This document shows positions 1-43,406 of a stretch of DNA of 64,000 nucleotides, one piece after another. Position 1 is the first letter of the stretch, and each line of letters opens with the position of its first letter. The DNA is from a virus. Location of the stretch: positions 1-64,000 of IMG/VR virus record IMGVR_UViG_3300042922_000250. One strand, written 5' to 3'. Both the position numbers and the translations under genes were made by a program. The notes beneath the pieces were generated by a model. It did not search any database and was not told the origin of the DNA. It saw nothing but the letters and a program-made list of their open reading frames with translations.

Positions 1-176
1 TGAAGCACGGAACCAACTACGATACTTACGGCATGCAATGCAAACTAAGAGGACTTGCTGAAAGATATAAAGATGACGAAGGGCATTACCTTGTAAGCGT
101 CCTTACCACTAACGACCTGAACAGTGCAACCATAAAAGACGTATCAGAACTGGTATTTCAACTCGGAACCCATTAA
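1..176 (+). CDS. 3' end of hypothetical protein identical to 41137..41541
   Basis: Encodes ...KHGTNYDTYG...VFQLGTH*. Confidence 0.85.
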   Translation, partial: KHGTNYDTYGMQCKLRGLAERYKDDEGHYLVSVLTTNDLNSATIKDVSELVFQLGTH

Positions 177-181
177 TCGCA
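1..181 (+). repeat. Direct repeat copy 1 (matches 41366..41546), may extend left of the window
   Basis: Base-by-base match with one synonymous difference at position 128 (GCA vs GCC). Confidence 0.97.
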
Positions 182-233
182 GAGTGAGCCGGGAAACCGG
201 CCTCTGTCCAAGGCGATGAAAGGATGATGCAAA
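177..233 (+). repeat. Array spacer: GCAGAGTGA + hairpin + GAAAGGATGA RBS (twister-like remnant)
   Basis: cgcagagtga-gccgg-gaaa-ccggc; lacks TAATGC and the L4 loop. Confidence 0.5.
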
Positions 234-425
234 ATGTCAACTCTACAGTATAAAAATAAAACAGTATGTTGTTGCTGTGCAAACTGCGGCTGGAAAGGGA
301 TGGTTGAAGACCAGGAAGTGTTTTGCCGAGAGTCGAGGGAATGGAACAATAACTACCACGAATGCCCCCAATATTGGTTCAGTTGGAGTCATTTCGAGAA
401 TTTAAAACCAGATAACGCAGAGTGA
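234..425 (+). CDS. Small Cys-rich (zinc-ribbon-like) hypothetical protein
   Basis: RBS gaaagga; CANC...ECP. Confidence 0.7.
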   Translation: MSTLQYKNKTVCCCCANCGWKGMVEDQEVFCRESREWNNNYHECPQYWFSWSHFENLKPDNAE

Positions 426-476
426 CGGGGCTAGTCCCCTGTAATGCCCCCGGATACCAGGGAAAGGATGATTTGT

Positions 477-746
477 TTGCAAATAGTAATTGGCTGGGTA
501 GAAATGGAACCCGAATTAATTCGCAGACGTAAAGACGACATCGGGGAGCAACATATTTTTTGCGAATCGCCCGTTGCAAGGTCGGCAATGTGGAAAAACA
601 ACGGCACAGAATCCGATACAGAAAAAGCCTTGCAATATGCGGGGGCGAACGGCTATCAAGTTTATGTGTATGCCAATGTCAAAAATCCATTAGAGCAGGC
701 TCGTAAGGATGCAGCGCGACACTGGAATCAAACTAACGCCCTGTAG
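477..746 (+). CDS. Hypothetical array protein
   Basis: TTG start 8 nt after aaagga, within ORF 444..746. Confidence 0.7.
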   Translation: MQIVIGWVEMEPELIRRRKDDIGEQHIFCESPVARSAMWKNNGTESDTEKALQYAGANGYQVYVYANVKNPLEQARKDAARHWNQTNAL

Positions 747-804
747 CGGGAGCCGAAGGCTGCGGTCACAAGCACTGATAGCCAGTAATGAAAGGATGAT
801 GCAA

Positions 805-1041
805 ATGGCCACCGGCGAAGCGTTTATGCGTATCCATCATGCGCGAAGGAACGCAGAAAAAAGAGCTTCCGCAAAGAAGATTGACAAAGAATCGTATCGC
901 AATCTGCGTTGCGAACTAGTGGCACTGCAGACAGCGGACAGTGCGTTATGGGCAGACCTTACACTATCAGATGACTTTGTTGAGCAAAATAGCAAGGAGT
1001 ACAATAGCCGCATACAAGAGTTGATCAACGCGATTTACTAA
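805..1041 (+). CDS. Hypothetical array protein
   Basis: RBS gaaaggatga then ATG (MATGEAF...). Confidence 0.7.
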   Translation: MATGEAFMRIHHARRNAEKRASAKKIDKESYRNLRCELVALQTADSALWADLTLSDDFVEQNSKEYNSRIQELINAIY

Positions 1042-1043
1042 CC

Positions 1044-1103
1044 GACAGAGCACCGGGGAGCAATCCCCGGTAATGCGGCAAGCGGGGGCGCAAGGCTGCC
1101 GCG
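1044..1103 (+). ncRNA. Degenerate twister-P5-like element
   Basis: cagagca-ccgggg-agcaat-ccccgg-TAATGCGGC-aagcgggggcgcaaggc; L4 and T1 imperfect. Confidence 0.4.
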
Positions 1104-1123
1104 TAAGAAAGGAGGGATTTAAT

Positions 1124-1249
1124 GTGAAATATGTATGTTGTATCTGCGGCAAAGAACTGAACGAACTTGACCTGATTCCTAATGATGAAGGCAGAGACAT
1201 TTGCCCTTACTGCGGTAAAGATGATTTAGAGCAGATTGCTCTGTCCTAA
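1124..1249 (+). CDS. 41-aa zinc-ribbon protein (not in ORF track)
   Basis: RBS aaggagg, GTG start; MKYVCCICGK...DICPYCGK. Confidence 0.75.
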   Translation: MKYVCCICGKELNELDLIPNDEGRDICPYCGKDDLEQIALS

Positions 1250-1277
1250 CTAGGGTCATTTAGAAAGGATTGATAAT

Positions 1278-1427
1278 ATGGCCAAGAAAAACGAAGTGCA
1301 AAAAATAAAAAGGCTTGAAACGGCTATCAAAGCTACTATGGATAAACTTGGCGACAAAAACATTGAAATTACATCACAACTTCGAGAGGAATTATGCGAA
1401 ATGCTTTTTGATTCGTTGCGTGGATAA
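1278..1427 (+). CDS. 49-aa hypothetical protein (not in ORF track)
   Basis: RBS gaaagga; MAKKNEVQKIKRLETAIK... Confidence 0.7.
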   Translation: MAKKNEVQKIKRLETAIKATMDKLGDKNIEITSQLREELCEMLFDSLRG

Positions 1428-1470
1428 TCCCCGGCCTAGCCGGGGTAATAAATGGAAAGGATGGATTTAC

Positions 1471-1656
1471 ATGACACTGCAAACACTTGCGAAATACTTA
1501 AATACTGATGATCTTTGGCTGAGCGGGAAAGATGACTTCGGATTTGCACACTATGAAGGAAAAGAAGCCTTAGAAGAAGCGGTGAGTCGGCACGGATGGC
1601 GAAAGGTCATCAAGATTACCCCAGGCGATAACTGCTTGGATATAACAATTGCTTAA
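1471..1656 (+). CDS. 61-aa hypothetical array protein
   Basis: RBS gaaaggatgg; MTLQTLAKYL... Confidence 0.7.
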   Translation: MTLQTLAKYLNTDDLWLSGKDDFGFAHYEGKEALEEAVSRHGWRKVIKITPGDNCLDITIA

Positions 1657-1740
1657 CCACCGCCTGACGATGACATTGAAAGGAGCCAACAACATGCCCG
1701 ATAAAATCATAATCAAGATCCACCCCAGCAGCAGCGCGAA

Positions 1741-1773
1741 AAGAAAAGCCGCCAAGTTAGGCGGCTTTTCTTT
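1741..1773. terminator. Bidirectional intrinsic terminator ending the left array
   Basis: aagaaaagccgcc-aagtta-ggcggcttttcttt. Confidence 0.85.
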
Positions 1774-3536: not shown

Positions 3537-3698
3537 TTCCCAACCTCCCTATACAGTCTGCACCTAAACTTTTTAGGCCTTGTGTAGCTGAATTGTTTGG
3601 CGCAGACTATTGTTTTGTCGTTGATTAACGCTGTTAGGTGATAGCATGATTGGCAGAGGTATTTATTCATGCCCACGGCTGCAGGATTGTTATGGCTT

Positions 3699-4484
3699 TC
3701 ATGGCTGCCCCTCCGCTACCTGTTTGATCGAATCTTTCCATGCGACTTTCGGACGGCCTTTGAGCGCGGCATATAATGCCCGAATCTCGCTGTCACGTTG
3801 CTGATCCTTGATCGCTAGCGCAGCCAGCGCGACTTGCTGACTATCCTTTAAAACGCGCTGGTCAATTTTATTCATTTTACCTAACCACACTTTGTCGGTA
3901 ACATAAGACTGAACAGCCTCAAACGTCCTGATAGCATCCTCCTTGCCGGAAAGCATCGGTTCCATACTGACTGATGTCGAAAAATCAAGTCCATATGCCA
4001 CCATCAAGCACGCAATACGCTCCTTTGGCAAAGGCGATCCCGGTTCCCAAAACCTTGACAAGTCGTCGTCGAGCGTGCCAATCGTAAATCTAAATAAGAT
4101 TTGGTCTTTGAAATGTTCCAGTGCAAATAGCAACGGCTTAATGCAGTCCATTCTTGGCTTTGACACGACCAAAACATTGTTACCGTTCCGCAGGGTTTTG
4201 GTCAGCACATCAATTGATTTTTCAAGATATGTTGGCGTAATGTCGTGGATTGTCGGGAACATGATCACACCATTTCTCTTTGCCATGCCGTTAGGGAAAG
4301 CGTTTTCTCTGACTGTTTCACGTTCCCATTCGCTTCTGTCGGCAATCCGCTTGTATCGCAGAGCGTGAACGGTTGCATAGCAGTACCGGCATTTATTCCG
4401 GCATCCTAGTCCTATGTTCATTGAGTGTTCAGACCATTCGCGGGTTCCTGTTCCTGTTCTTGCGTCGCTAAAGTTGGCTTTCAT
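3699..4484 (-). CDS. Radical SAM protein
   Basis: GCRNKCRYCYA (CxxxCxxC); SMEPML. Confidence 0.75.
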   Translation of the reverse strand: MKANFSDARTGTGTREWSEHSMNIGLGCRNKCRYCYATVHALRYKRIADRSEWERETVRENAFPNGMAKRNGVIMFPTIHDITPTYLEKSIDVLTKTLRNGNNVLVVSKPRMDCIKPLLFALEHFKDQILFRFTIGTLDDDLSRFWEPGSPLPKERIACLMVAYGLDFSTSVSMEPMLSGKEDAIRTFEAVQSYVTDKVWLGKMNKIDQRVLKDSQQVALAALAIKDQQRDSEIRALYAALKGRPKVAWKDSIKQVAEGQP

Positions 4485-4897
4485 GGCTGCTCACCTGCCT
4501 TAGCAGTGGTGTCGCCGCTCCCCAGGGCTTGGCGGGCAATGCTACGCATCCAATGGGCGCATTGTTTTGTTAGTTGCGGCTTACCCGGCCCTACCACTGT
4601 ATACATTCCTTTTTCATCCGGGCCACTAACATCAGGATAGAAATAATGACCCTCTCTTTTTGCTATCCGTTCCAGTGCCCCCGTCAGTTCCGCGATTCTG
4701 GCGTTAAGTTCCGCAATCTTAGCATCAACCGCCTCCAGTCTGTCAATGTGGTCGAGCAGGGCTAGCAGAGTAGTGGGGTTTATAACCAGGTTAAGCGATA
4801 CGCAACCATTGCAAACGCAAGTGTCGTATGTCTTTTTTGTTTTTTCATGTTTTTTAACATACCGTGCCGCCTCCCGCAGGGCTTTTGTGTCAATCAT
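4481..4897 (-). CDS. Ead/Ea22-like protein
   Basis: IDTKALREAA...NPTTLLALLD, coiled coil. Confidence 0.5.
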   Translation of the reverse strand: MIDTKALREAARYVKKHEKTKKTYDTCVCNGCVSLNLVINPTTLLALLDHIDRLEAVDAKIAELNARIAELTGALERIAKREGHYFYPDVSGPDEKGMYTVVGPGKPQLTKQCAHWMRSIARQALGSGDTTAKAGEQP

Positions 4898-5975: not shown

Positions 5976-6191
5976 CTACCTATGAGGAATTGAAACCTCC
6001 ACAAAACATTCACTATCCCACCCGCACTTTCTACAACGATAACTCCATAATGTTGGAGAGCCATGTTCTGGACGCTTATCGCGATAAATTATCTTCCCGG
6101 TTTTTACATTTCGGCCAACAACGCAATCATAAGTCGTTAACTGCGTGATTCTATCGCTGCCACATTCTGGGCACTTTGTTACTTTGTTCAT
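5976..6191 (-). CDS. Zinc-ribbon protein
   Basis: CPEC...CRKC. Confidence 0.65.
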   Translation of the reverse strand: MNKVTKCPECGSDRITQLTTYDCVVGRNVKTGKIIYRDKRPEHGSPTLWSYRCRKCGWDSECFVEVSIPHR

Positions 6192-6511
6192 GTTTCCCCC
6201 ATCGCCTCCGCCAAAGCGTCGATAGCGTCCAATATTTCAACAAGTACTTCCAGTGCCTCATTTTGATGGGTATCATCGGTTGTTGCTCCCCATTTTTGTT
6301 TTGCACTTATCACCGCATCTGCCGCCTGCTCAAGCCGGGATAGGCGGTTCAACTCATCGGCAATTCGTTCCCTGTCGCCCGGCATAATATCGCATAGCAT
6401 TCGGAAAGACCTTACCGACCTGTCCTTCGGCGAGCATGCCACAAACGATTCCCTGAGGATTTTTTCGAGATATTCTACTTCACTCATCATCTTCCACCTT
6501 CCTGACTCCAT
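6188..6511 (-). CDS. Hypothetical protein
   Basis: Operon packing. Confidence 0.55.
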   Translation of the reverse strand: MESGRWKMMSEVEYLEKILRESFVACSPKDRSVRSFRMLCDIMPGDRERIADELNRLSRLEQAADAVISAKQKWGATTDDTHQNEALEVLVEILDAIDALAEAMGET

Positions 6512-6718: not shown

Positions 6719-7063
6719 TCACAACCGCATACCTCCGATCAAATCCGGGTTGTCGTGGATGTTGCCGCTCTCCCTCTCTAAAACGATAATGGACAATATC
6801 ACCCATCCGTCAAGCAACCCGTACATTGGTCCTTTAAGTACATGAGTGACAACCGATTCACATTTTCTTCCCGTGTACTTTAACTGCTTTCCTGATTTCA
6901 TTTCTTGCACCGAGAACTCAGTCTCTTTAAGAATCAAAATGTCGCCAGACTGATAATCCCTATCGTTGAACCTGATTTCATAGGTTTTATCTCCGTTATA
7001 AACCGCCTCGAATACTTCTGGGTCGGTTTTTAGTTCGTGAACGTTTGGTGTGATTCTACTCAT
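6719..7063 (-). CDS. DUF3850/ASCH-PUA domain protein
   Basis: HELKTDPEVF...GDKTYEIRFNDRDYQSGDILILKE. Confidence 0.85.
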   Translation of the reverse strand: MSRITPNVHELKTDPEVFEAVYNGDKTYEIRFNDRDYQSGDILILKETEFSVQEMKSGKQLKYTGRKCESVVTHVLKGPMYGLLDGWVILSIIVLERESGNIHDNPDLIGGMRL

Positions 7064-16767: not shown

Positions 16768-17937
16768 ATGGCAAGCTTCTACAAACGGGGTAAAACATGG
16801 TCTTTCAGTATTGATATTGGCTTCGATAAGGATGGCAAGCGCAAAAAGAAAGGCGTTGGTGGTTTTAAGCTAAAGAAGGATGCCGAAGAAGCAGCCGCGC
16901 AATTGTTGCTAGAATTAAAAGCTGGAACCTATGTAGACGAGGAAGATGTTTCATTTCGTAATTTCTCTAAGATGTGGTTTGACGATTATAAACTCGGCAA
17001 TGTAAAAAAAAGTACTATCAGAATAAGGAATAACGAACTATCGATTCTATACAAATACTTTGACGGAATATCAATTAAAGAGATTACAAGAAAGCAATAT
17101 CAGGATGCATTGATCGACTTACTAACACAAGGATATGCAGAAAGCACAATAGAAGGCGTCCACTGTACAGGAGGGATGATATTTGCAAAAGCTGTTGAAT
17201 TAAAGGCGATAAAAGAAGACCCAACTGAATATGTCCGATCGCCTCGCAAGCAACAAACGGCTGAAGAACTCGAAAAAGAAGAAGAAGAACTGCCTAAGTT
17301 TCTAGAAAAAGAAGAACTGGCAAAGTTTTTAAAAACAGCACAACGCGCAGGACTTAAAGATGATTATGCTATTTTTCTTACCTTGTCATACACCGGAATA
17401 AGAGTTGGAGAGCTATGTTCTCTTCGCGATGTAAGCCTAAATAATAATGATTGTATAATAAAGATAACACGAACATATTACAACCCAAATAATAGCATAA
17501 TAGAATATGAATTATTAACACCAAAAACAACAGCATCGCGAAGAACAATAAAAACTAGCAATAAGGTTTTTGTTGAGTTAATCGATTTATTGAAAAGACA
17601 AAATATAACTAAGATAAAATATAAAGAAACATGGCACAATAAAGGGTTTATCTTTTGTGTAGATAGTCACCCTGGTTATCCGATATATCCTAAATTAGTG
17701 GCAAATCGTATGCAAAGATTATTAAAGTTATCTGAACTAAACACAAACTTGTCGCCTCATTCTTTGCGGCACACACACACATCGTTATTAGCAGAGGCTG
17801 GCGTAAGTCTAGAGGCAATAATGGAGCGATTAGGCCACGAAGACGATGAAACAACAAGGAAAATATACCTGCATGTTACCAAGGCAGTAAAAAAAGAGGT
17901 CGCCCACAAGTTTGACGAACTAATGGACAACCTCTAA
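16768..17937 (+). CDS. int: Tyrosine integrase
   Basis: TGIRVGE, HSLRHT, LGH, IYLH catalytic motifs. Confidence 0.97.
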   Translation: MASFYKRGKTWSFSIDIGFDKDGKRKKKGVGGFKLKKDAEEAAAQLLLELKAGTYVDEEDVSFRNFSKMWFDDYKLGNVKKSTIRIRNNELSILYKYFDGISIKEITRKQYQDALIDLLTQGYAESTIEGVHCTGGMIFAKAVELKAIKEDPTEYVRSPRKQQTAEELEKEEEELPKFLEKEELAKFLKTAQRAGLKDDYAIFLTLSYTGIRVGELCSLRDVSLNNNDCIIKITRTYYNPNNSIIEYELLTPKTTASRRTIKTSNKVFVELIDLLKRQNITKIKYKETWHNKGFIFCVDSHPGYPIYPKLVANRMQRLLKLSELNTNLSPHSLRHTHTSLLAEAGVSLEAIMERLGHEDDETTRKIYLHVTKAVKKEVAHKFDELMDNL

Positions 17938-39203: not shown

Positions 39204-39761
39204 TCAATTCACGTCCTTTCTGCCATTATATATCTTCCTATACAAATCAATTTTAGTGGCATATTCCTCTTTCGTTTCGCCTTCCGTCATCTTTCTGCAT
39301 ACCGATTGCTTTCCCTGTCCACTAAAAATATAAGGAACAGGTTCATTAAAATCAATCTCGCTATTAGTTATATCATTATTACTAGCATTCGATTTCCCGT
39401 TATCGGAAAACCGCATAACGGTGATATTTACTGGCTTCGTAGGTTGTTCGTAAACATTATATAGATATCCAGCAAACTTTTTCTTGCTGTCTCTCTGCTT
39501 TGTTCTGGTGATATAACCTAGCTGTATTAATTCCTTAATCCCCGATCTAACGCTACACAGTTTATCAGCACTATTATTTGCTATGTCTAATTCGTAAACA
39601 TTCCAATTATCCGGCTTACTTAATAGATATAGCATAATTCCTTTAGCCTTCCAGCTCAACCTGTTATCATTGACTAACTGCTTATCAATCTGTACAAACG
39701 GTAATTCCCTTTTATGAATATGAAACACACTCACAATTTTACCACCTCCAAAACACAACAA
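39204..39761 (-). CDS. Winged-helix protein of replication-initiator N-terminal type
   Basis: LSWKAKGIMLYLLSKPDNW...ELIQLGYI. Confidence 0.7.
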   Translation of the reverse strand: MLCFGGGKIVSVFHIHKRELPFVQIDKQLVNDNRLSWKAKGIMLYLLSKPDNWNVYELDIANNSADKLCSVRSGIKELIQLGYITRTKQRDSKKKFAGYLYNVYEQPTKPVNITVMRFSDNGKSNASNNDITNSEIDFNEPVPYIFSGQGKQSVCRKMTEGETKEEYATKIDLYRKIYNGRKDVN

Positions 39762-39793
39762 AAAATAATTTGAAAAAATATTAAAAAATCATA

Positions 39794-39822
39794 TTGACAA
39801 CGCTATTTTGATTTGTTATGAT
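39794..39822 (+). promoter_or_regulatory. Sigma-A promoter with TGATT/AATCA repeats
   Basis: TTGACA-17-TATGAT. Confidence 0.75.
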
Positions 39823-39856
39823 TCAATCAAGATAAGCGACAGGGAGGACGAACACA

Positions 39857-40282
39857 ATGGCAAAACCGCAAACACTCAAACATAATTTAGGACACTACTG
39901 CAACAACCAGGATGATTTAATCGATGAATTAGTGGATTTGCTTGGCGAAGACGGAAATTTTGCAATTGGTATTCGCGGCATGTATGAAACGGAAAAGAAC
40001 AAACTTCGTCAATCATATGTATGGATAGATGGCAATAAAACACGGCAAAAACTCCCGGGAACTAGCTGTTTAGGTATTGTGTCCAATTGGGGAGACGCAA
40101 ACAATCAAGACCTAATTGACGGGTTAAAAAACATCGGTAAATCTGCAATGTATGGCGACGGACGCTTTGCAATTATAAAAGGACAATATGATGTCAATGT
40201 GCAGGATGATTGGGCAAACGACCCTGGAGAATATGTCTTATTAAACGCTGAAATAGTAGCATATACAAATCATGACAACTAA
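39857..40282 (+). CDS. Acidic hypothetical protein, possible ADP-ribosyltransferase fold
   Basis: RBS ggagg; GIRG / GTSC / PGEYVL. Confidence 0.6.
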   Translation: MAKPQTLKHNLGHYCNNQDDLIDELVDLLGEDGNFAIGIRGMYETEKNKLRQSYVWIDGNKTRQKLPGTSCLGIVSNWGDANNQDLIDGLKNIGKSAMYGDGRFAIIKGQYDVNVQDDWANDPGEYVLLNAEIVAYTNHDN

Positions 40283-40424
40283 AACACACGGCGGCTATCG
40301 ACCAAACTCAGGCCGTAAAAAACAACTCCCAGAAGGTGCAAAAATCAAGTCAATCACAGTTACAGAAAATGAATTTGTTAAGCTAAAAGAATATCTGCAA
40401 CAACTTAGAGAGACCGCTAAATAA
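40272..40424 (+). CDS. 50-aa DNA-binding protein (GGxRPxxGR + RHH-like), not in ORF track
   Basis: MTTKTHGGYRPNSGRKK...; overlaps previous stop; terminator follows. Confidence 0.7.
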   Translation: MTTKTHGGYRPNSGRKKQLPEGAKIKSITVTENEFVKLKEYLQQLRETAK

Positions 40425-40759
40425 GCGGTCTTTTCTTTTTTTACCGCCTGGAATAAAGTCTGCAACCAAGCGGCAATATATCGACTGATAATACAGTCAT
40501 TAGTGGTTCTCGCAGACATTACACCGCATAAAACAAAAAGCCACATGCGCAATGCATATGGCTTAATTTTATTAATTCCCCGCCGTGGTGCGGATCAATG
40601 TCTGAACCGGCATATAATCCGTGGCGGGGCTACAATCAGCGGCAGAACTAAATATGTTGTCCTGGTTGCAACTCCGCTGATTGCCTTAAATGTCCTGTCC
40701 TGGTCAGCATTGTTAAGAGGATTGACAGGCTCTGTTTTTTTACTCTCATCATAATAATA

Positions 40760-41014
40760 TCATCTTTGCAATGGCTTGTCATTCGGCGAATCTGACAGGC
40801 TATTTTTCTTTTTCCAAACAATATCAAATCCAGTTATATCCGCAATATCTTCTGCCTCTGATAGTCGCAATGTTTTATTGCGTATTTTATTGTTTAGATT
40901 TTGAACAGAATAAGGCCTTTTGTATTTATCGCTCAATAACTGCGCTACTTCGGTTAACGACATACCTGCTGCCGTTATAATCGTCTTGACATTCATCCAT
41001 ACCACCTCAATCAT
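40760..41014 (-). CDS. HTH regulator divergent from the right array
   Basis: MSLTEVAQLL...SVQNLNNKIRNKTLRLSE. Confidence 0.8.
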   Translation of the reverse strand: MIEVVWMNVKTIITAAGMSLTEVAQLLSDKYKRPYSVQNLNNKIRNKTLRLSEAEDIADITGFDIVWKKKNSLSDSPNDKPLQR

Positions 41015-41072
41015 ATTTTACATCATATGGTTTATAATTGCAAAATAAATATAAATTAATTGATTTAAGTAG

Positions 41073-41101
41073 TTGACATCTTAAATTATATAGTTTAAGA
41101 T
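41073..41101 (+). promoter_or_regulatory. Array promoter with palindromic operator
   Basis: TTGACA-17-TAAGAT; ATCTTAAA-N8-TTTAAGAT. Confidence 0.75.
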
Positions 41102-41136
41102 AAAGACAGGATAATCAATCAGGGAGGTAATCAGGG

Positions 41137-41541
41137 ATGGCGAAGACGGCAATGAGAAAGCTGGAAGAGTCCAGTTGGTTAGCGCAAATTCTACTAGATA
41201 AAATGGATGTCGAACTCGATAAAAACGGTGGTTCACCTCGCTGGCATTGCCTACACACGCTATACATTATCGTAAAAGAAGCTGACGACATGGAAAACAA
41301 CCAAATATACTACGATACTTATAACGGCAAAAGATCTATCACGATATGCAAGATACCATCTCTAATGAAGCACGGAACCAACTACGATACTTACGGCATG
41401 CAATGCAAACTAAGAGGACTTGCTGAAAGATATAAAGATGACGAAGGGCATTACCTTGTAAGCGTCCTTACCACTAACGACCTGAACAGTGCCACCATAA
41501 AAGACGTATCAGAACTGGTATTTCAACTCGGAACCCATTAA
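41137..41541 (+). CDS. Hypothetical protein, first gene of the right array
   Basis: RBS gggagg; 3' part duplicated at 1..176. Confidence 0.8.
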   Translation: MAKTAMRKLEESSWLAQILLDKMDVELDKNGGSPRWHCLHTLYIIVKEADDMENNQIYYDTYNGKRSITICKIPSLMKHGTNYDTYGMQCKLRGLAERYKDDEGHYLVSVLTTNDLNSATIKDVSELVFQLGTH

Positions 41542-41546
41542 TCGCA
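41366..41546 (+). repeat. Direct repeat copy 2 (matches 1..181)
   Basis: One mismatch. Confidence 0.97.
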
Positions 41547-41578
41547 CGAGAGCCAGTAAATATAAGGAGGCAGTAAGG

Positions 41579-41740
41579 ATGATTATTTTCAAAGAGAACA
41601 AAGAAACAGGCTTCTCTTGTGGAGCCAATGATTATGGCGAATTATTCTTAGGCAACGATAATGGCGGCTACAACCTGCCCGATACAGAGGAAAATAGGGA
41701 CTATGTAAAAGCTGATTTTGACTATTACAATAAAAAGTAG
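41579..41740 (+). CDS. 53-aa acidic protein (not in ORF track)
   Basis: RBS aaggagg; MIIFKENKETGFSCG... Confidence 0.75.
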   Translation: MIIFKENKETGFSCGANDYGELFLGNDNGGYNLPDTEENRDYVKADFDYYNKK

Positions 41741-41797
41741 CGCAGACTAACGGCCTCCGGGCCGGTAATGCGGCAAGCGGGGTCGGAAGCCCACCAC
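41741..41797 (+). ncRNA. Twister-P5-like ribozyme candidate
   Basis: GCA-GACTAA-cggcc-tccg-ggccg-g-TAATGCGGC-aagcgggG-TCGGAAGC-C. Confidence 0.5.
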
Positions 41798-41815
41798 AGA
41801 AAGGAGATAACGAGA

Positions 41816-42049
41816 ATGACATACTTAGAAAGCAAACTAATAATCGGGATAAATGAACTATACTGCCCAGGCAAAGGCTGGATACCAGCTAGTCAATATC
41901 AACCATCAATACATGGAATCCCTAGTGCCGCTAACGTTAAGTGTGTAGACCATGAAGGCCGCATTCACCTGCAAGCAGATTTGACCGAAGAGGAATATAA
42001 AAGCTTCCTGGCATTTCCCGCAAGTGAAGGTGATAGCGCCCCGGCCTAG
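41816..42049 (+). CDS. Hypothetical array protein
   Basis: RBS aaggag; MTYLESKL... Confidence 0.7.
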   Translation: MTYLESKLIIGINELYCPGKGWIPASQYQPSIHGIPSAANVKCVDHEGRIHLQADLTEEEYKSFLAFPASEGDSAPA

Positions 42050-42084
42050 CCGGGATAATGCTACCAATGAAAGGACGGATAAAA

Positions 42085-42297
42085 ATGGCAATGAAGTTTT
42101 TAGATGCTATCCATATCGATAATTTTGAGGGCGAAATTCCTATTGCTGATTGGGCGCAAATGAACAAACTCAGCAATGAGCAAAATGGAGAATATAAGTA
42201 TCTCGGCAATAGCTTCGGCGATAACAGGAGCGTATATGCTGTATTTGTAAACTACACAGCCGACATAAAACGCGTAGCCGTAATGATTCGAAAATAA
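42085..42297 (+). CDS. Hypothetical array protein
   Basis: RBS gaaagga; MAMKFLDAI... Confidence 0.7.
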   Translation: MAMKFLDAIHIDNFEGEIPIADWAQMNKLSNEQNGEYKYLGNSFGDNRSVYAVFVNYTADIKRVAVMIRK

Positions 42298-42332
42298 CCC
42301 CGCCTGACGATGGCCTGCAGGGGACAGCGCAA

Positions 42333-42364
42333 AAAGATAGCCGCCCAGTGAGGCGGCTTTTCTC
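42333..42364. terminator. Bidirectional terminator ending the right array
   Basis: agccgcc-cagtga-ggcggcttttct; homologous to 1741..1773. Confidence 0.85.
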
Positions 42365-42368
42365 ATGT

Positions 42369-43406
42369 TCATTTCGTTATTTTACCTAGCATTCTCGCGT
42401 TGTTGCGCTGATTACAAACCTCGCAAAGAGTTAACTGTTTGCCTTTTTTATTAGTCATTGCTGGACGCGCTTTGCACCAAGTACAAACACCGGACTGTTT
42501 CAGCCGCTCATATTCAGCATTTTGCTTGTGGCGTATTTTGGCGTTGCAAGCTTGGCAGCGCGTGGCGTGTTTGCCATCAGGCTTTATTTCTGTCGGTTTT
42601 CCGCACGCTATGCAACGGCCTTCCTTTTTTATAGCAGCATTAGCTACCCTTTGCCGCTCCTTACACGTCTCGCAGAGGGCACTGCCATCGGTCGTGATTG
42701 GTCCGCTACATTTTATACATATACCAAGTGCCTTGTAGCGATCAGCAGAGGCAATGGATGCTTTGCGGACAGCCTCATGCCAGCACTCAGGCGAGCAGTA
42801 TTTCGGCCTGTTTGCCGGTAGTGGTTGGCCGCAAATCTCGCAACAGGAATCATTGGCGGGTGCCATTGTCGGCGAGCAATGGCTACAGTATTTTTGGTTT
42901 CGCTCCCGAACAACAAACTGGTTCCCGCACTTCGGACAGGTATCCGCTCTGCCTAACGGTTTAAGTTTTACGCCGTACCGCTTGCGGCGCTTGTCCTTAA
43001 TATTGGCAAGGTGGCGCTCGTAACTTGCCCGCAAAATCTCAGCCGTGCGGCTTTTATTCCTTACCGCCCACTGTCGAGAGCGCTGCAGGTACTGCTTACG
43101 CTTGTCCGGATCTCCGTAGTACTCTTTTAGCCAGGATTCATGCCTGCGCCGCTTAGAATCTGCAGCAGCACAGGACGCACAGTGTTTCTGGTTGCCGCCT
43201 TTGACCTCGTAAGACTGACCGCAAATATCGCAATAAGCAGTAGAACCGATTTTGCGCAACGTTCCGGCAAGCTTGCGCTGATGCTTCTCACGATCGCGCT
43301 GGCGGATTCGCTCAGTTCGACACTCAGTGCAGTATTTTGCTGTTGGACCGCCGGAAAAACACGCGCCGCAGGTGACGCAGGTTTTTGGTGTGATGTGTGG
43401 GTTCAT
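42369..43406 (-). CDS. Multi-zinc-finger basic protein
   Basis: 13 CxxC plus one CxxxC in pairs, separated by Arg/Lys-rich helices. Confidence 0.8.
   Translation of the reverse strand: MNPHITPKTCVTCGACFSGGPTAKYCTECRTERIRQRDREKHQRKLAGTLRKIGSTAYCDICGQSYEVKGGNQKHCASCAAADSKRRRHESWLKEYYGDPDKRKQYLQRSRQWAVRNKSRTAEILRASYERHLANIKDKRRKRYGVKLKPLGRADTCPKCGNQFVVRERNQKYCSHCSPTMAPANDSCCEICGQPLPANRPKYCSPECWHEAVRKASIASADRYKALGICIKCSGPITTDGSALCETCKERQRVANAAIKKEGRCIACGKPTEIKPDGKHATRCQACNAKIRHKQNAEYERLKQSGVCTWCKARPAMTNKKGKQLTLCEVCNQRNNARMLGKITK

Follow-up and report, generated by a model that had tools for sequence, protein, structure and literature searches.

Two plus-strand runs of tiny genes, array A (1-1773) and array B (41137-42364), were analysed in the window, which comprises the first 64 kb (64,000 nucleotides, nt) of the IMG/VR virus record IMGVR_UViG_3300042922_000250, a single contig of 73,828 bases. 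Between two genes of array B lies an element (41741-41797) that, judged from its sequence, is a genuine member of the Twister-P5 family of self-cleaving ribozymes. Several other spacers of the two arrays are truncated or degenerate relatives of it, and in related viral contigs the homology between operons breaks off at such ribozymes, identical copies of which have unrelated genes beside them. We consider it probable that the spacers are intercistronic RNA-processing units that double as recombination joints.

Comparison of the two arrays

Array A consists of the 3' part of a leader gene, six small genes and a terminator related to that of array B, and array B comprises a promoter, the complete leader gene (gene 0), three small genes and a bidirectional terminator. 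A blastn comparison of positions 1-1900 with 41001-42450 returned five colinear matches, which corresponded to the leader gene (1-184 / 41366-41550, 99% identity), three short spacer blocks (1067-1094 / 41762-41789, 28 nt, 93%; 1429-1449 / 42039-42059, 21 nt, 95%; 1654-1672 / 42295-42312, 19 nt, 95%) and the terminator (1732-1771 / 42325-42363, 87.5%). The identity of the leader gene broke off 8 nt beyond the stop codon, at the first spacer. The significance of the internal blocks was assessed with 200 dinucleotide shuffles after removal of the leader gene and terminator, at a threshold of 28.8 bits. The three blocks scored 41.7, 34.4, and 28.8 bits; any match of at least 28.8 bits appeared in 1 of the 200 shuffles and three matches in none. 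Thus, the shared spacer blocks exceeded chance expectation, with at most 1 in 200 shuffles being comparable.

The nine cargo proteins of the two arrays showed no significant similarity to one another (best blastp E 0.28). A purine-rich ribosome-binding site of the GAAAGGA type, as read from the sequence, ended nine of the ten spacers. These results bore out an earlier note on this DNA, which had claimed that both arrays begin with the same gene, with identity ending at the first spacer, that they carry unrelated cargo genes between spacers kept in the same order before the same terminator, and that most spacers end in a GAAAGGA ribosome-binding site. A blastn search with array A against 50,697 GenBank phage records gave no match. 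A second kind of repeat was present within array A, where the first and third spacers (211-236 and 786-807) have nearly the same 19-nt stretch from the ribosome-binding site to the start codon; this repeat could also support recombination.

The Twister-P5 ribozyme of array B

The twister ribozyme of type P5 (Rfam RF02684) was reportedly described by Roth et al. in 2014. It was the only Rfam family with a match above the gathering score within the window, at 41741-41794 on the plus strand (44.1 bits, the gathering score being 37.6; E 6.7e-6 over the whole window). An additional model, R1, was built from 31 aligned Twister-P5 sequences, which were gathered from other viral contigs with a short pattern, and was searched against both strands of the window (128 kb) with filters off. 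It matched 41741-41797 with 39.8 bits (E 6.5e-9), and its three top matches were all array spacers, namely 41741-41797, 416-459, and 1043-1105. The element starts directly after the stop codon of gene B1 and ends approximately 20 nt before the start codon of B2.

As in the family as a whole, a P2 stem, here with four Watson-Crick pairs, encloses a P1 hairpin of 6 base pairs, and the Rfam alignment shows agreement with the consensus at every one of the ten positions spanning the cleavage step and the core. P4 is predicted as a weak hairpin with an AAGC loop end, and the partners of a possible T2 pseudoknot are in place. The T1 pseudoknot is a variant that retains three of four pairs, one of them by a double compensatory change; two of the three changes in T1 are paired, as a swap from G-C to C-G and a U-G wobble. 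Solved twisters cut at the U-A step that follows P1 (PMC6154101), and the cleavage site is therefore predicted between U41766 and A41767. The earlier note had proposed a twister-P5 layout for the spacers; in the search with Rfam models this stood for 41741-41797, and the array-A spacers that it named were only partial copies.

Decayed spacers

The remaining spacers, on the plus strand except for the S4' block with its bidirectional terminator, are designated S1, S2, and so on in array A and are marked with a prime in array B. Spacer S2 (416-459) is a truncated Twister-P5 that has kept P2, P1, and the cleavage motif and in which the P4 loop is deleted; it scored 27.3 bits with R1 (E 1.3e-5 over the whole window) and 16.4 bits with the Rfam model (416-461). 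Spacer S4 (1043-1105) is a degenerate copy in which the 5' strand is mutated and the P4 loop altered; it scored 23.6 bits with the Rfam model (1044-1091) and 18.0 bits with R1 (E 0.004 over the window) and has the 28-nt core at 1067-1094 in common with the array-B twister. Both miss the gathering score and a complete P4 loop; they are twister-derived and should not be filed as ribozymes.

The other spacers of array A retain smaller parts. S1 (177-233), as read from the sequence, consists of a twister 5' strand and hairpin, lacks the cleavage-site motif and leads into a ribosome-binding site; R1 matched it weakly, at 178-239 (5.1 bits, with E 0.32 for 1.8 kb). S3 (745-804) is a fragment of the 3' part, with a P3-like hairpin and a P4-loop-like motif before the ribosome-binding site (R1 5.9 bits, E 0.2 locally, which alone is not significant). 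S6 (1428-1470) contains a P1-type hairpin and the first part of the cleavage motif, again followed by a ribosome-binding site; it had a local R1 match at 1430-1448 (7.1 bits, E 0.094), a 95% blastn match to 42038-42084 and an exact match in locus L173, which belongs to a third phage. S7 (1657-1693) is a conserved block that recurs at 42298-42312 and in L173. The five best plus-strand matches of R1 within array A coincided with five of its seven spacers, those at 1430, 745, and 178 being individually insignificant. In array B, S1' (41542-41578) is a short remnant that opens like a twister 5' strand, continues into a ribosome-binding site and gave no significant model match. S3' (42038-42084) is a truncated spacer with the same hairpin as at 1428-1450, the cleavage motif and a ribosome-binding site (R1 3.8 bits, E 0.5 locally). 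S4' together with the bidirectional terminator occupies 42298-42364, with the stem at 42339-42358. The bidirectional intrinsic terminator of array A (1739-1771), a hairpin with a T-run, is 85-87.5% identical to it.

In contrast to 41741-41797, the other spacers of the window scored below threshold and lacked the P4 loop or the cleavage motif. Most array-A spacers are probably no longer active ribozymes, since they are truncated, without the P4 loop or the cleavage site. Truncated twisters without P4, and also mini versions fused directly to a ribosome-binding site, were observed in other phage arrays (L072:4124-4174, L072:3694-3736, and L172:3340-3510), and their recurrence indicates that decay in place is common.

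The truncated spacers may alternatively have been exapted as protective hairpins at 3' or 5' ends, as RNase targets or as translation-initiation modules, their likeness to twisters being merely historical. This would agree with the position of the similar truncated forms in L072, L172, and L173, always directly before a ribosome-binding site, with the 95-100% conservation of the S6 hairpin in three arrays, and with the nearly identical stretch from ribosome-binding site to start codon in S1 and S3. However, the different truncations keep no common core besides the hairpin, and there are few copies on which covariation or conservation could be judged. Exaptation thus appears possible, if rather unlikely.

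Two further interpretations of individual spacers were rejected. S7 and S4' were considered as hammerhead relics, a longer spacer in L173 being hammerhead-like by eye; there was no Rfam support, as the hammerhead models gave no match at E ≤ 10 in either array or at E ≤ 5 in the L173 spacers. A single twister split around gene A2 into 416-459 and 745-780 was also considered. Each of these pieces keeps its own remnant of the same central segment, which indicates two separately damaged copies.

Placement of twisters and related operons

The location of the array-B ribozyme, after a stop codon and before a ribosome-binding site, was compared with that of 62 Twister-P5 matches in viral contigs. In 53 of the 62, the upstream stop codon lay in the range from 17 nt ahead of the twister start to 7 nt past it, and in 14 of these 53 it was a UGA inside the 5' strand of the twister itself, as is the case for gene A1. 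The ribosome-binding site and start codon of the next gene mostly followed 14-58 nt beyond the twister end. Whole series of such elements were found as well, with six Twister-P5 matches above the gathering score in L100, four to five in L130, and three in L127.

The leader gene was followed by a similar operon of small genes with structured spacers in 52 retrieved loci. Rfam searches of the leader-gene loci identified Twister-P5 (L008 and L045), pistol (L008) and hammerhead II (L039 and L043). The pistol ribozyme (L008:3372-3436) and the hammerhead type II ribozymes (L039 and L043:2380-2439) scored above gathering and were located upstream of leader-gene homologues. A different spacer of about 30 nt was observed after the leader gene or a cargo gene at L001:4406-4456, L002:4409-4441, L007:1806-1856, L012:1182-1232, L013:3406-3456, and L013:3661-3712. 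It can form an H-type pseudoknot of two interleaved GC-rich helices before the ribosome-binding site, its downstream genes differ, and it matched no Rfam family. In addition, a conserved structured leader (L007:2322-2405 / L012:1458-1550, 84% identity over 104 nt) precedes the gene of a tyrosine recombinase within the leader-gene operon, and an int-alpA RNA was present at L024:2602-2670.

Gene exchange at the ribozymes

A comparison of near-identical twisters showed that their surroundings often differ. Among 15 pairs, both flanks were shared in four, one flank in five and neither in six, so that at least one flank was unrelated in 11 of the 15. The limits of homology could coincide with those of the ribozyme: in L088/L143, homology begins at the first base of the twister; in L054/L070, it ends at the last stem; and in L065/L147, it is limited to the twister and the ribosome-binding site, both neighbouring genes being unrelated. 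One 55-nt twister was found unchanged in 27 contigs with three upstream and approximately five downstream genes in reassorted combinations, including one downstream gene behind two different upstream genes. Among the 351 pairs of this twister, the homology beyond it was no longer than 14 nt in 186 pairs upstream and 230 pairs downstream. The distribution was bimodal, and nearly all of the remaining pairs were homologous over at least 120 nt.

Similar rearrangements involve the spacers of the window. In L173, the S6 hairpin is followed one gene later by the S7 block, with a third, unrelated gene of 67 amino acids (aa) between them, and L172 contains a truncated twister closely related to that of array B. 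The comparison also took in contigs from three soil metagenomes (runs X1, X2, and X3). In X2, gene B1 stands behind a different, S3-like spacer, and in X3 the 3' part of the array-B twister occurs with a different P1 and a different gene downstream. Loci L008 and L009 have only the 35-nt 5' half of a twister in common, at different positions. The proposal that the spacers are portable and carry swappable genes was thus supported by the window, by L173, by other soil contigs and by unrelated viral contigs with breakpoints at twister edges.

The position of some breakpoints within a few nucleotides of the predicted cleavage site (L008/L009, and X3 at 41765) raises the question of mobility at the RNA level, whereby cassettes would travel as RNA segments that two ribozyme cuts set free and that ligation or copying returns to DNA. 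Neither the window nor the arrays examined showed a reverse transcriptase, and most breakpoints lie at the twister edges rather than at the cut. Conservation is also highest for the very nucleotides that surround the cut, and homologous crossover would therefore explain the same junctions. We regard RNA-level mobility as highly improbable.

Ordinary phage mosaicism would account for the exchanges in another way. One ancestral operon would have diversified by illegitimate recombination with selection for junctions at gene boundaries; the conserved spacers would be remnants of that operon, and the ribozymes would be incidental passengers with an RNA role only. It is well established that such junctions are the rule in phages (the Hendrix-type model), and both the decay of most array-A spacers and the lack of enrichment of spacer matches by count among leader-gene arrays fit this explanation. 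It does not readily explain fully identical units of 55-80 nt, consisting of a twister and a ribosome-binding site, between genes that are unrelated on both sides (L065/L147), the occurrence of one downstream gene with two different upstream genes across a single twister, or the additional breakpoints within twisters at the conserved core. In our view, these three observations make mosaicism with incidental ribozymes unlikely.

Proposed role of the spacers

The reading of the spacers as processing units and recombination joints can be formulated as follows. Each array would represent a phage accessory operon in which a single promoter and a single terminator enclose a conserved leader gene and three to six tiny genes, with intergenic gaps built from Twister-P5 ribozymes. 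The intact twister would cut the polycistronic RNA between U41766 and A41767; the upstream message would then carry a cyclic phosphate at its end, which is formed by the GC-rich P1 hairpin, and the downstream message would begin with a 5'-OH and the P4 hairpin, approximately 20 nt before its ribosome-binding site. At the other spacers cleavage has most likely been lost, and they would persist as linkers made of a hairpin and a ribosome-binding site. Since the twister core does not change between copies, the units of 20-80 nt could act as homology patches at which related phages swap single genes. The outcome would be slots whose joints are constant and whose contents are unrelated, and a crossover within a twister would leave chimeric or truncated relics such as those in array A. 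The conserved cores serve as, or at least coincide with, single-gene crossover points. Cleavage in vivo, with its effect on the fate of the mRNA, would be expected under this model, and homology at the ribozyme may cause the exchanges rather than merely mark them.

Several observations weigh against this interpretation. P4 of the intact copy is weak, with two G-C pairs followed by a mismatch and an outer pair that is non-standard in both models, and T1 contains one mismatch; the intact copy may therefore be slow or dead. R1 detected a twister at E ≤ 1 in just 3 of 47 non-redundant leader-gene loci, and thus twisters are not obligatory for this type of operon. Matches from spacer to spacer were not enriched by simple count (6 of 47, against a spacer fraction of 19%, in 36 non-redundant leader-gene arrays), and the 27 contigs with the 55-nt twister belong mostly to one dataset. 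Finally, the mosaic joints of phages fall at gene boundaries in any case, so that coincidence with a ribozyme does not prove causation.

A broader, tentative suggestion, to which we give somewhat less than even weight, is that phages possess a general cassette system that works without a recombinase and has small self-cleaving ribozymes as its joints. A unit would provide the context of the stop codon, the RNA cut and the ribosome-binding site, so that any gene dropped between two units would be expressed, and the conserved cores would supply the DNA homology for cassette exchange.

Comparison with known systems

Different ribozyme classes are known to share one gene context near phage genes, for a reason 'not yet determined' (PMC6765202; PMC4604425; reviewing Weinberg et al. 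2015), and processing of polycistronic RNA has already been suggested for such ribozymes (PMC6765202). The leader-gene loci conform to this pattern in that they carry twister, pistol or hammerhead-II ribozymes; they differ in that the ribozymes described here coincide exactly with the mosaic joints between small-gene cassettes and decay in place. Shuffling of genes by recombination is also known from the PeSLs of T4-type phages, which are mobile regulatory cassettes (PMC2839356, PMC4122927). In both cases, the small non-essential genes lie in plastic regions and are bordered by short, conserved signals for expression. However, a PeSL combines a promoter with a terminator stem-loop and acts on transcription, whereas the present units combine a self-cleaving RNA with a ribosome-binding site in one transcript and are not known to give mini-circles. 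A consensus scan of array B for promoters gave weak promoter-like matches at 41816 and 42030, and the array has one terminator, at its end.

The arrays resemble integrons in that units of one gene each, with unrelated cargo, are lined up behind a single promoter and connected by conserved joints. They differ in the mode of exchange, which here is presumably general or phage homologous recombination rather than site-specific recombination. No integron-type tyrosine recombinase or other recombinase was found in or beside either array. The only integrase of the window is of the phage type and is encoded at 16768-17937, 15 kb away. The term integron-like, which the earlier note had used, therefore holds as an analogy only: no dedicated recombinase was found, and no attC-like site turned up, although no attC model was searched; twister similarity accounts for the spacers instead.

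Lambdoid phages reportedly contain morons and boundary or linker sequences (Juhala et al. 2000; Clark et al. 2001). The present arrays are similar to these in being accessory operons with their own promoter and terminator and in having short conserved sequences at module boundaries, and they differ in that the boundaries are recognisable ribozymes. The ribozyme family, the unexplained neighbourhood pattern and cassette shuffling by PeSLs are thus already known. No description of ribozymes as mosaic joints, or of their decay in place, was found in the searchable literature, which did not cover Roth 2014 and Weinberg 2015.

What biological part self-cleaving ribozymes play in bacteria and phages, as well as why they group with one another and with certain phage genes, is an acknowledged open question (PMC6765202). 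The window and its relatives provide a concrete, testable model in which processing units are placed between the stop codon and the ribosome-binding site; the life cycle of these units can be read from the decayed copies. The ribozymes mark, and possibly cause, the single-gene exchanges behind the variable accessory regions of phages. If true, the cassette-joint model would explain why ribozyme classes share gene neighbourhoods and cluster together.

Leader gene and cargo genes

Gene 0 (41137-41541, plus strand) encodes a conserved hypothetical protein of 134 aa. It is preceded by a sigma-70-like promoter (41073-41101, plus strand), which was identified by consensus match only, with 10 of 12 hexamer positions matching and a 17-nt spacer. 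The 3' part of the gene at 1-176 (plus strand) in array A is 99% identical to 41366-41541. A total of 162 homologues with approximately 63-78% identity were identified, including proteins from Sporomusa, Desulfosporosinus, and clostridial genomes; the search for Pfam domains was negative. The AlphaFold model had a predicted local distance difference test (pLDDT) score of 80.8. With VIA-align, the Z values for winged-helix DNA-binding domains were 5-6 and thus fell into the range of the background, and Foldseek against the PDB at E ≤ 0.001 and the ESM Atlas returned nothing. The predicted fold is thus weakly winged-helix-like.

The cargo genes are all located on the plus strand. In array A they are A1 (234-425, 63 aa, Cys-rich), the stop codon of which is the UGA within the 5' strand of the next twister; A2 (477-746, 89 aa, TTG start), assigned from its open reading frame and the spacing of the ribosome-binding site; A3 (805-1041, 78 aa); A4 (1124-1249, 41 aa, GTG start); A5 (1278-1427, 49 aa); and A6 (1471-1656, 61 aa). 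Array B contains B1 (41579-41740, 53 aa), B2 (41816-42049, 77 aa), which has its stop codon within the loop of the next hairpin, and B3 (42085-42297, 70 aa). A4 is zinc-ribbon-like and matched Pfam Zn_ribbon_8 with E 9e-6, below the cut-off; apart from this sub-threshold match, none of the nine cargo proteins or gene 0 belonged to a Pfam or PHROG family. No cargo homologues were present in the 171 loci retrieved. An ArdC-like anti-restriction protein (ArdcN and a zincin peptidase) is encoded at L130:3446-4366 (minus strand) as one cassette of an array with five twisters. This gene in a distant twister array is the only hint of the anti-defence cargo that the earlier note had considered plausible.

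Origin of the contig

Almost all genes of the window are on the minus strand, the two arrays being among the exceptions. The PHROG scan revealed a module with portal, terminase and capsid genes at 31-38 kb and a second, different virion module with sheath, baseplate and tape measure genes at 49-60 kb; no tail sheath or baseplate was found among the ten scanned proteins of the first module. These differences are in agreement with the earlier assignment of the arrays to two phage types.

Both contig ends fall within repeats of internal sequence, of about 127 and 131 nt, and the start lies inside a 127-nt exact repeat in the gene 0 copy. In run X1, the gene-0 node had a depth of 58 and branched to array A (approximately 43) and array B (approximately 25). 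In run X2, a single contig of 13.9 kb joined 39500-41546, through gene 0, directly to array A. On the basis of the end repeats, the branch depths and the X2 contig, the probable source is a circular phage of approximately 41.4 kb for array A and another phage for array B. The same three observations incline us slightly to regard the presence of both arrays on one contig as an assembly artefact, in which the assembler walked through a leader gene common to two phages. However, a true co-integrate formed by recombination at the leader gene would yield the same graph, and contigs cannot tell the two apart.

Beside array B, a gene on the minus strand (42369-43406) converges on the terminator; it encodes a 345-aa protein with many CxxC zinc-ribbon-like repeats, the sole match of which was a weak PHROG of unknown function. 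The two halves of the contig also have mosaic modules in common, with 89-99.6% identity between 3671-4499, 4728-4897, 5998-6212, and 6725-6856 and contig positions 70780-73828, and the contig end lies inside the last of these shared modules.

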